The notes under the pieces are model-generated. The model did not search any database and was not told the DNA's origin. It was given only the letters and a program-made list of their open reading frames with translations. Source: Escherichia coli (GTDB taxonomy: Bacteria; Pseudomonadota; Gammaproteobacteria; Enterobacterales; Enterobacteriaceae). Taken from it: a DNA stretch of 4,312 nucleotides. The stretch lies in assembly GCF_003334315.1 (NCBI RefSeq), contig NZ_QOWR01000101.1; one strand, written 5' to 3'. Of the stretch, positions 1 to 213 are shown piece after piece (the first letter of the stretch is position 1; each line of letters opens with the position of its first letter). The position numbers and the translations under genes were made by a program.

Positions 1-93
1 CCGCCGGGAGCGGATTTGAACGTTGCGAAGCAACGGCCCGGAGGGTGGCGGGCAGGACGCCCGCCATAAACTGCCAGGCATCAAATTAAGCAG
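1..93 (+). other. Distal part of an rRNA operon 3' flank (rrnB T1-T2 spacer-like). Contains a short copy of the 5S rRNA 3' end plus flank (AACTGCCAGGCATCAAAT, about 68..86) and GC-rich hairpins (CGTTGC-GAA-GCAACG at 21..35; GGCGGGC-AGGAC-GCCCGCC at 47..65; a hairpin truncated by the window edge at 1..13).
   Basis: Seen in sequence: perfect inverted repeats at the stated coordinates. Established knowledge: the string matches, as far as I can recall it, the E. coli rrnB T1-T2 region that is also widely used in expression vectors, and the 5S rRNA 3' end is ...GGGAACTGCCAGGCAT. Confidence 0.75.
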
Positions 94-120
94 AAGGCCA
101 TCCTGACGGATGGCCTTTTT
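94..120 (+). terminator. Rho-independent terminator (rrnB T2-like): 10-bp perfect stem AAGGCCATCC / GGATGGCCTT (94..103 and 108..117), loop TGAC, followed by a T-run to 120.
   Basis: Stem, loop and T-tract read directly from the sequence; position about 95 nt upstream of murB start; matches the known rrnB T2 terminator. Confidence 0.88.
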
Positions 121-213
121 GCGTTTCTACAAACTCTTCCTGTCGTCATATCTACAAGCCATCCCCCCACAGATACGGTAAACTAGCCTCGTTTTTGCAT
201 CAGGAAAGCAGCT

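Follow-up and report, generated by a model that had tools for sequence, protein, structure and literature searches.

The junction between the ribosomal RNA operon rrnB and the essential murB-birA operon of Escherichia coli raises the question of what separates these two transcription units, and of where transcription of the downstream genes begins. We addressed this question in a 4,312-nt stretch of DNA (contig NZ_QOWR01000101.1; the whole stretch is called the window here), which is a piece of the E. coli chromosome with the distal end of rrnB at the left, followed by murB, birA, coaA, tRNA genes and the start of tufB. The explanation that we consider highly probable is that positions 1-126 are the end of rrnB, holding the small-RNA gene rrB and the terminator T2, and that positions 127-213 are the control region of murB-birA with a putative weak promoter. 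Every element of 1-138 is already described (rrnB T1/T2, the tRNA-linked-repeat (TLR) family, rrB and its RNA RrB, and a vector cassette). Our additions are modest: the vector boundary at 138, a conservation-based candidate for the murB-birA promoter, and the frequency of a polymorphism of the T1-rrB unit. What a preliminary description of this DNA had stated about the sequence itself was confirmed.

Under this explanation, about 13% of rrn transcripts would get past T1, just upstream of the window, run through rrB (1 to about 89) and end at T2 (94-117 plus the U-run). RNase E would cut just after a repeat at 69-86, as it does after 5S rRNA, and so free the short-lived RrB, which would bind Hfq and CsrA. 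A weak sigma-70 promoter within 127-213, with TAAACT (179-184) as its -10 element and AAGCCA (156-161) as a poor -35 element, would start murB transcription near 190-192 (about G191) and produce a leader of about 23 nt with AGGA at 203-206. The processing and binding of RrB and the terminator efficiencies are taken from the literature (Stenum et al. 2021, PMC8144298; here and below, the accessible part of that article). The promoter and its start site are predictions from sequence, and the sequence identities, hairpins, conservation and population frequencies are direct observations.

Sequences that Adams et al. 2021 (PMC7815308) give in their Term-seq tables served to place the window on the K-12 chromosome: position 1 corresponds to 4171844 of U00096.3 and the murB ATG to 4172057. 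Positions 1-213 are 100% identical to K-12 W3110. In the native comparison locus (L001) the order is 5S rRNA, T1 and window position 1 (= L001 1201), with the 5S gene 90 nt upstream of position 1.

The element that closes rrnB is the following.

Positions 90 to 126, plus strand: rrnB terminator T2, intrinsic, with stem 94-103/108-117, loop TGAC and T-run 116-120, then GCGTTT.

The two arms of T2 are 10 nt each and 100% complementary, with a 4-nt loop, and the fold of 88-126 has an energy of -22.7 kcal/mol (z = -6.1), equalled by none of 200 shuffles; T1, just upstream of the window, folds with -31.4 kcal/mol for comparison. The T2 hairpin that had been proposed at 94-117 is therefore borne out by a perfect 10-bp stem followed by a T-run. 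The distance of about 95 nt between terminator and murB was likewise correct, since the T-run ends at 120 and the ATG stands at 214, leaving a gap of 94 nt. Both rrnB terminators were described by Brosius 1981 and Orosz 1991, as cited in PMC8144298, where T1 is said to stop 87% and T2 100% of transcripts (Orosz 1991).

We gathered murB loci from 80 Enterobacteriaceae species. Most of the gathered contigs end 60-600 nt upstream of murB, as would be expected with an rrn repeat at that place. Among the 72 sequences with enough upstream DNA (71 loci and the window), 39 have a perfect hairpin with a T-run 77-131 nt ahead of the murB ATG, with at least eight different stem sequences. As the hairpin is retained through these changes, the stem changes are compensatory, and the terminator and its nearness to murB are old and maintained. 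An essential operon about 95 nt behind a very strong one, insulated by a conserved terminator, makes a neat example of such an arrangement.

The same chromosomal neighbourhood contains the systems of Brandis et al. 2019 (PMC6735719), in which a terminator is followed by the promoter of the next operon within tens of nucleotides. Overlap and coupling were shown there for tufB-secE and others, not for rrnB-murB. Unlike those cases, the T-run and the putative murB -35 element of E. coli are about 35 nt apart and therefore do not overlap. As a side observation, in Trabulsiella and Yokenella (loci L031, L056 and L080) only about 35-40 nt separate the T-run of the rrn terminator from the conserved TAAACT downstream of it, so that the terminator and the putative murB -35 region nearly abut, which recalls the terminator-promoter junctions of Brandis et al. 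2019 (PMC6735719). A generic promoter and terminator scan of 1-600 called no features, and missed T2 as well. We believe that T2 was missed since a stem extension tolerant of G-T pairs (92-119) uses up the T-run, leaving fewer than five T in the tail window; this would be a general limitation of the tool for terminators with an A-tract and a T-tract.

The murB loci yielded 72 distinct sequences, which were aligned from -100 to +30 and to which the conservation values below refer. The alignment defines the following features.

Positions 154 to 167, plus strand: moderately conserved block ACAAGCCATCCCCC, with columns of 54-99% and C159 at 99%.
Positions 173 to 185, plus strand: best-conserved intergenic block ATACGGTAAACTA, with the putative murB-birA -10 element TAAACT at 179-184.
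Positions 190 to 192, plus strand: predicted murB transcription start, placed by its spacing from the -10 element; G191 is 99% conserved.
Positions 191 to 213, plus strand: short conserved leader G.TTTTGCATCAGGA.AGC, with the Shine-Dalgarno sequence AGGA at 203-206.

Positions 121-153 are poorly conserved (at most 58%, apart from a few columns), and 12 of the 13 columns of 173-185 are conserved at 94-100%, with position 175 at 75%. In 80 of 81 sequences, GGTAAACT is present with no more than one mismatch and has its T between -34 and -37 relative to the ATG. TAAACT itself agrees with the -10 consensus in four of six positions, including the critical bases A2 and T6; four of its columns are invariant, and columns 181 and 183 are conserved at 94% and 97%. 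The sole -35 candidate at 17-bp spacing is AAGCCA (156-161), with three of six matches, which leaves the pair below the 9-of-12 threshold of the scan. Further downstream, most columns of 191-209 are conserved at 92% or more across genera. In this alignment, the third positions of the first murB codons are less conserved than either 173-185 or 191-209. The conservation of 191-209 also exceeds what the Shine-Dalgarno sequence alone needs, and no conserved hairpin is evident in it.

Since 179-184 lies in the best-conserved block at a fixed distance from the ATG, it is most likely that murB-birA has its own weak sigma-70 promoter with TAAACT as the -10 element. The preliminary description had argued that murB needs a promoter of its own within 121-213, and the conserved -10-like block and leader found there support this. 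It had also named TAAACT as a weak -10 candidate. The position 179-184 stands, and so does the weakness of the match, as pairs in this region reach at most 7/12; the recourse to read-through in its place does not, as 12 of the 13 columns of its block are 94-100% conserved, like a real -10 element. The conservation analysis thus supplies a concrete and testable candidate for the murB-birA promoter.

Several points weigh against this assignment. No sigma-70-like hexamer pair in 118-213 has more than 7 of 12 matches, and the chosen pair, at 7/12, is level with six others in the same interval. It fails the generic scan with its 9-of-12 cut-off, and conservation alone sets it apart. A mapped murB start site was not found in the published start-site datasets searched (SMRT-Cappable-seq, Cappable-seq, Kim 2012 and Mendoza-Vargas 2009), none of which mentions murB in its accessible portion, and a full-text literature search returned nothing relevant on a murB promoter. 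A protein-binding site would be another possible explanation of the conserved block.

This last point can be made specific. Block 154-185 would then be the operator of a regulator, for example one for autoregulation by BirA, rather than a core promoter. Conservation does run past the hexamer to ATACGG, and TACAAG (153-158) and GTAAAC (178-183) resemble pieces of the half-site of bioO, which we take to be TTGTAAACC. These two motifs are not in the inverted repeat that BirA needs; both match overlapping parts of one half-site. The likeness to a BirA operator was rejected for this wrong arrangement, and no evidence was found that BirA controls its own operon. We consider an operator at this place very improbable and retain the weak promoter as the preferred reading of the block.

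Two other candidates in this region were rejected. A sigma-54 promoter at 184-199 (TAGCCT-N5-TTGCA) lacks the GG, and conservation in its column 186 reaches only 46%. TCTACAA, which occurs as a 7-nt direct repeat at 126-132 and 151-157, was treated as chance, as its first copy is unconserved outside Escherichia.

The preliminary description had further suggested that murB expression may be partly driven by read-through. In its strongest form, this proposal denies murB-birA an effective promoter of its own and attributes most of its expression to transcripts from the very strong rrnB promoters that pass T2. The poor hexamer pairs in 118-213, none better than 7/12, are compatible with it. Transcription of rrn is very intense, and a leak of about 1% would already be substantial; in about half of the E. 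coli genomes, moreover, a single terminator stands between 5S and murB. Against it stands the cited T2 efficiency of 100% (PMC8144298), and read-through alone does not explain a near-invariant -10-like block and leader at a fixed distance from the ATG across genera. Term-seq gives no signal past T1 that would point to it: in the accessible portion of the Adams et al. tables (PMC7815308), a 3' end is listed at T1 (4171799/800), there is no entry in 4171900-4172099, and the next plus-strand 3' end after T1 is at 4172639 inside murB, which is window position 796. With T2 cited at 100%, no Term-seq end directly past T1, and a conserved -10 element and leader, a large share of read-through is not indicated. 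The 3' end at 796, about 582 nt into murB, is reproducible and is marked 'No' in one column of the accessible PMC7815308 table.

The insulation of murB by T2 has its own weak points. The 100% figure for T2 is quoted second-hand. The lack of a 3' end at T2 in Term-seq may come from rapid decay or from multi-mapping, the latter because rrnA and rrnD carry near-identical copies of the T2 region. The rrn operons are also so strong that a sub-percent leak, below the precision of the assays, could rival a weak promoter.

A genetic result was considered as further evidence for read-through. After deletion of rrnB, a CamR marker between murI and murB could not be removed (Gyorfy et al. 2015, PMC4330394). 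The coordinates in the Methods of that article which fit the rrnB locus, 4166310-4172043, are printed under rrnD, and the rrnB and rrnD deletion coordinates are evidently swapped. The deletion apparently ends at window position 200, 14 nt before the murB ATG, and takes out T2, the putative -10 element and the predicted start (121-200 = U00096.3 4171964-4172043). The failed removal fits a need of murB for transcription from upstream of 200. Because the deletion also removes 121-200, the result does not separate an own promoter from read-through, and it was set aside as evidence for the latter. Overall, expression of murB-birA largely by read-through appears improbable to us; a partial contribution is weakly supported and not favoured, and an own weak promoter remains the preferred source of murB transcription.

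What, then, is the DNA between T1 and T2? Calling 1-93 a plain terminator fragment, as had been done, was incomplete, as about 1-89 are the 3' part of a described gene with the following parts.

Positions 1 to about 89, plus strand: 3' part of rrB, a TLR small-RNA gene between rrnB T1 and T2.
Positions 21 to 35, plus strand: small hairpin CGTTGC-GAA-GCAACG within rrB, with a fold of -7.2 kcal/mol (z = -2.3), weak alone.
Positions 45 to 67, plus strand: GC-rich hairpin within rrB, with the inverted repeat 46-53/59-66 and a fold of -19.0 kcal/mol (z = -4.7).
Positions 69 to 86, plus strand: 18-nt direct repeat of the 5S 3' end, AACTGCCAGGCATCAAAT, comprising the last 13 nt of 5S rRNA and the next 5 nt.

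Of the seven rrn operons of E. coli, three (rrnA, rrnB and rrnD) end in dual terminators, and the sequences between the terminators are members of the TLR family, with the names rrA, rrB and rrF in rrnA, rrnB and rrnD, respectively (Stenum et al. 2021, PMC8144298). The family is credited to Egan & Landy 1978 and Rudd 1999, as cited in PMC8144298, and conservation of sequence and structure is reported there for no fewer than 31 species from 12 genera. RNAs of the rrB type arise by read-through of T1 and are processed in K-12 to 173 nt and about 115 nt; their half-life is about 2.5 min, and their binding partners are Hfq and CsrA (PMC8144298). The binding of CsrA by RrB is specific in vitro and needs GGA motifs (PMC8144298). 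The 173-nt RrB starts 3 nt past the 5S 3' end and ends 3 nt past the 18-nt repeat, which was proposed to recreate the RNase E site used for 5S (PMC8144298). In terms of the window, the 5' end of RrB lies outside and its 3' end at roughly 84-89.

The sequence of window 1 to about 89 agrees with these descriptions. It lies downstream of 5S rRNA in the same operon, its terminal 18 nt equal the 5S end, and it is the K-12 rrB sequence, with the same repeat, GGA motifs, GGA-loop hairpin and position between T1 and T2 over the identical 1-213. There is no sequence difference from K-12 rrB, of which the window has only the 3' portion of about 89 nt. GGA motifs occur at 7, 12, 40 and 55, and a fifth stands just upstream of the window, in agreement with the five reported for RrB. 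The loop of the 45-67 hairpin, AGGAC, displays a GGA that can be interpreted as a CsrA-type motif on the basis of PMC8144298. The repeat is exact over the 18 nt of 69-86 (= L001 1101-1118). The preliminary description had started it at 68, where the sequences differ, and was right for the remainder.

An Rfam search called no family in 1-213, and none of the Rfam families covers rrB. RtT (RF00391), the TLR of the tyrT operon, resembles rrB in that its repeat closes with sequence copied from the 3' end of the stable-RNA gene that precedes it. It gave a partial match to window 1-43 (L001 1200-1243) at 17 bits (E = 1.3). As this is below the gathering score of 45, rrB is not a member of the RtT family.

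The T1-rrB unit upstream of murB is polymorphic among E. coli strains. Of 5426 complete genomes, 2521 cover window 1-213 at 80% or more; the unit is present upstream of murB in about 46% and absent in about 54%. In genomes without the unit, the BLAST match begins exactly at 69, with an annotated 5S gene directly there. In H1 the order is 5S-T1-rrB-T2-murB, the ATG standing 300 nt from the 5S end, and K-12 has the same allele. In WCHEC025985, the T2 hairpin comes directly after 5S, and the distance to the ATG is 132 nt. In KE47, 5S precedes one hairpin with a T1-type stem in T2-type flanks, and this distance is 134 nt. The loci examined with a single terminator were L085, with the T2 hairpin, and L004, with the T1-type-stem hybrid, and L001 served for comparison. 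Judged from identity bands, and thus as estimates rather than counts, roughly 10% of genomes have the single T2-type allele and roughly 42% the T1-stem type. The dual allele and the single T2-type allele are exactly one 168-bp unit apart, bounded by 18-nt repeats, and the repeat at 69-86 would be the recombination boundary of the unit.

Copies elsewhere in the genome were counted by megablast. Window 1-68 is present in 3945 of the 5426 complete genomes, with a median of two copies where present, and 1481 genomes (27%) have no rrB-type copy of 1-68 anywhere at the sensitivity of this program. Records from Klebsiella, Citrobacter and Salmonella match all or most of window 1-128 at 87-95% identity; the unit therefore predates E. 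coli, and where E. coli lacks it, loss or conversion is the likelier cause. The absence of the rrnB copy from about half of the complete E. coli genomes is not stated in the accessible part of PMC8144298.

Such strain-to-strain loss bears on whether RrB has a selected function, and the widespread absence of the unit weakens the case for an indispensable one. Positions 1-89 might be just the spacer of a fail-safe double terminator, the remnant of a duplicated unit of 5S end and terminator, with RrB as a by-product that has no selected function. The absence before murB in about 54% of genomes, the 27% of genomes without any copy of 1-68, and the single 168-bp unit with 18-nt repeats at its bounds that separates dual and single alleles all fit this reading. 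The published deletion and overexpression phenotypes are also modest and go in the same direction (PMC8144298). Less compatible with a mere spacer are the reported conservation of sequence and structure across genera, the specific binding of CsrA by RrB through GGA motifs in vitro (both PMC8144298), and the matches in Klebsiella, Citrobacter and Salmonella. We regard a mere spacer as possible, with the odds against it, and continue to treat 1-89 as a small-RNA gene.

The polymorphism also means that the number of terminators ahead of murB differs between strains. Strains would then differ in RrB dosage and in having one terminator or two to shield the essential murB-birA operon from the strongest promoters in the cell, and read-through into murB-birA might be strain-dependent, together with a coupling of cell-wall and biotin-ligase expression to growth rate. 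The polymorphism itself is observed, and we rate this consequence as unlikely; an effect on expression is speculation.

The sequence of this locus is also found in engineered plasmids, which raises the question of whether the stretch is native at all. Alignment with plasmids gave the following feature.

Positions 1 to 138, strand not applicable: stretch that engineered plasmids share base for base in their rrnB T1-T2 cassette.

Two plasmids with different backbones, pAK51 (NC_009716) and pMQ (NZ_OP009360), have the same base as the window at 138 of 138 positions, and they match the native chromosome across a further 212 nt upstream of the window, comprising 5S and T1. In both, the order is polylinker, 5S gene, T1 and window sequence. 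The divergence is at 139, where pAK51 continues with TTGTTTATTT (the bla promoter), pMQ with GGGCCTAGTG and the window with CCTGTCGTCA. A match to a vector element up to about 140 had been noted before, and its exact end in pAK51 and pMQ is 138. It had been held that an extension of the match past about 140 into vector backbone would speak against a genomic origin; the window shows no such extension and runs on from 139 as chromosome into murB.

Vector contamination or a chimeric assembly would account for the 138 bases shared with engineered plasmids. Window 1-600 is, however, 100% identical to many E. coli chromosomes, and the same murB junction is found at 80% or more coverage of 1-600 in 5418 of the 5426 complete E. 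coli genomes, as well as in other Escherichia species. The RefSeq gene order around these matches is 23S rRNA, 5S rRNA (rrf), murB and birA. The vectors leave the window at 139, where the window goes on as chromosome, and the cassette is itself derived from the rrnB locus. The population-wide junction, the native gene context and the divergence at 139 refute contamination or a chimera, whose probability we put at practically nil, and the earlier statement that this DNA is genomic and not vector-derived was correct.

The cassette of the pKK223-3, pTrc and pBAD type is like the window base for base over 1-138 and the 212 nt upstream. The window differs in being the native chromosomal source, with the murB upstream region rather than backbone after 138. 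The vector element called 'rrnB T1T2', which is in wide use in plasmids (PMC8144298), is thus taken from the 5S-T1-rrB-T2 locus and cut at window position 138. Vector-contamination screens will flag native 1-138, and trimming it from E. coli assemblies is unwarranted. Any plasmid or engineered strain with 'rrnB T1T2' also has the rrB small-RNA gene, as was pointed out by Stenum et al. (PMC8144298). In BW25113, six places match window 1-68, one of them beneath a lacZ fragment; we take the extra copies in this strain to be engineered rrnB terminator cassettes.

The remainder of the window carries the following genes.

Positions 214 to 1242, plus strand: murB (UDP-N-acetylmuramate dehydrogenase), 342 aa.
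Positions 1239 to 2204, plus strand: birA, whose start shares ATGA with the murB stop.
Positions 2233 to 3183, minus strand: coaA, with the ATG chosen to give a protein of 316 aa, which we take to be the length of CoaA.
Between coaA and the start of tufB: tRNA-Thr(UGU), tRNA-Tyr, tRNA-Gly(UCC) and tRNA-Thr(GGU).

Sharing of ATGA at 1239-1242 by the murB stop and the birA start suggests translational coupling of the two genes inside one operon. According to Brandis et al. 2019 (PMC6735719), the group murB-birA-coaA is inserted between rrnB and tufB. Where birA and coaA converge, a hairpin of the form AGGGGAGC-TAAT-GCTCCCCT at 2208-2227 has its T-run on the minus strand and coincides with the primary 3' end that Term-seq gives for coaA in K-12 (4174046). 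The K-12 version of this hairpin (GGGGAGCGAATACTCCCC) differs in the loop and at the top of the stem, which shows that the window does not come from K-12. Finally, several 'plasmid' records of 4.8-5.4 Mb in PLSDB, and probably also CP061233 (1.0 Mb), look like mislabelled chromosomes, because the rrnB-murB region is present in them.

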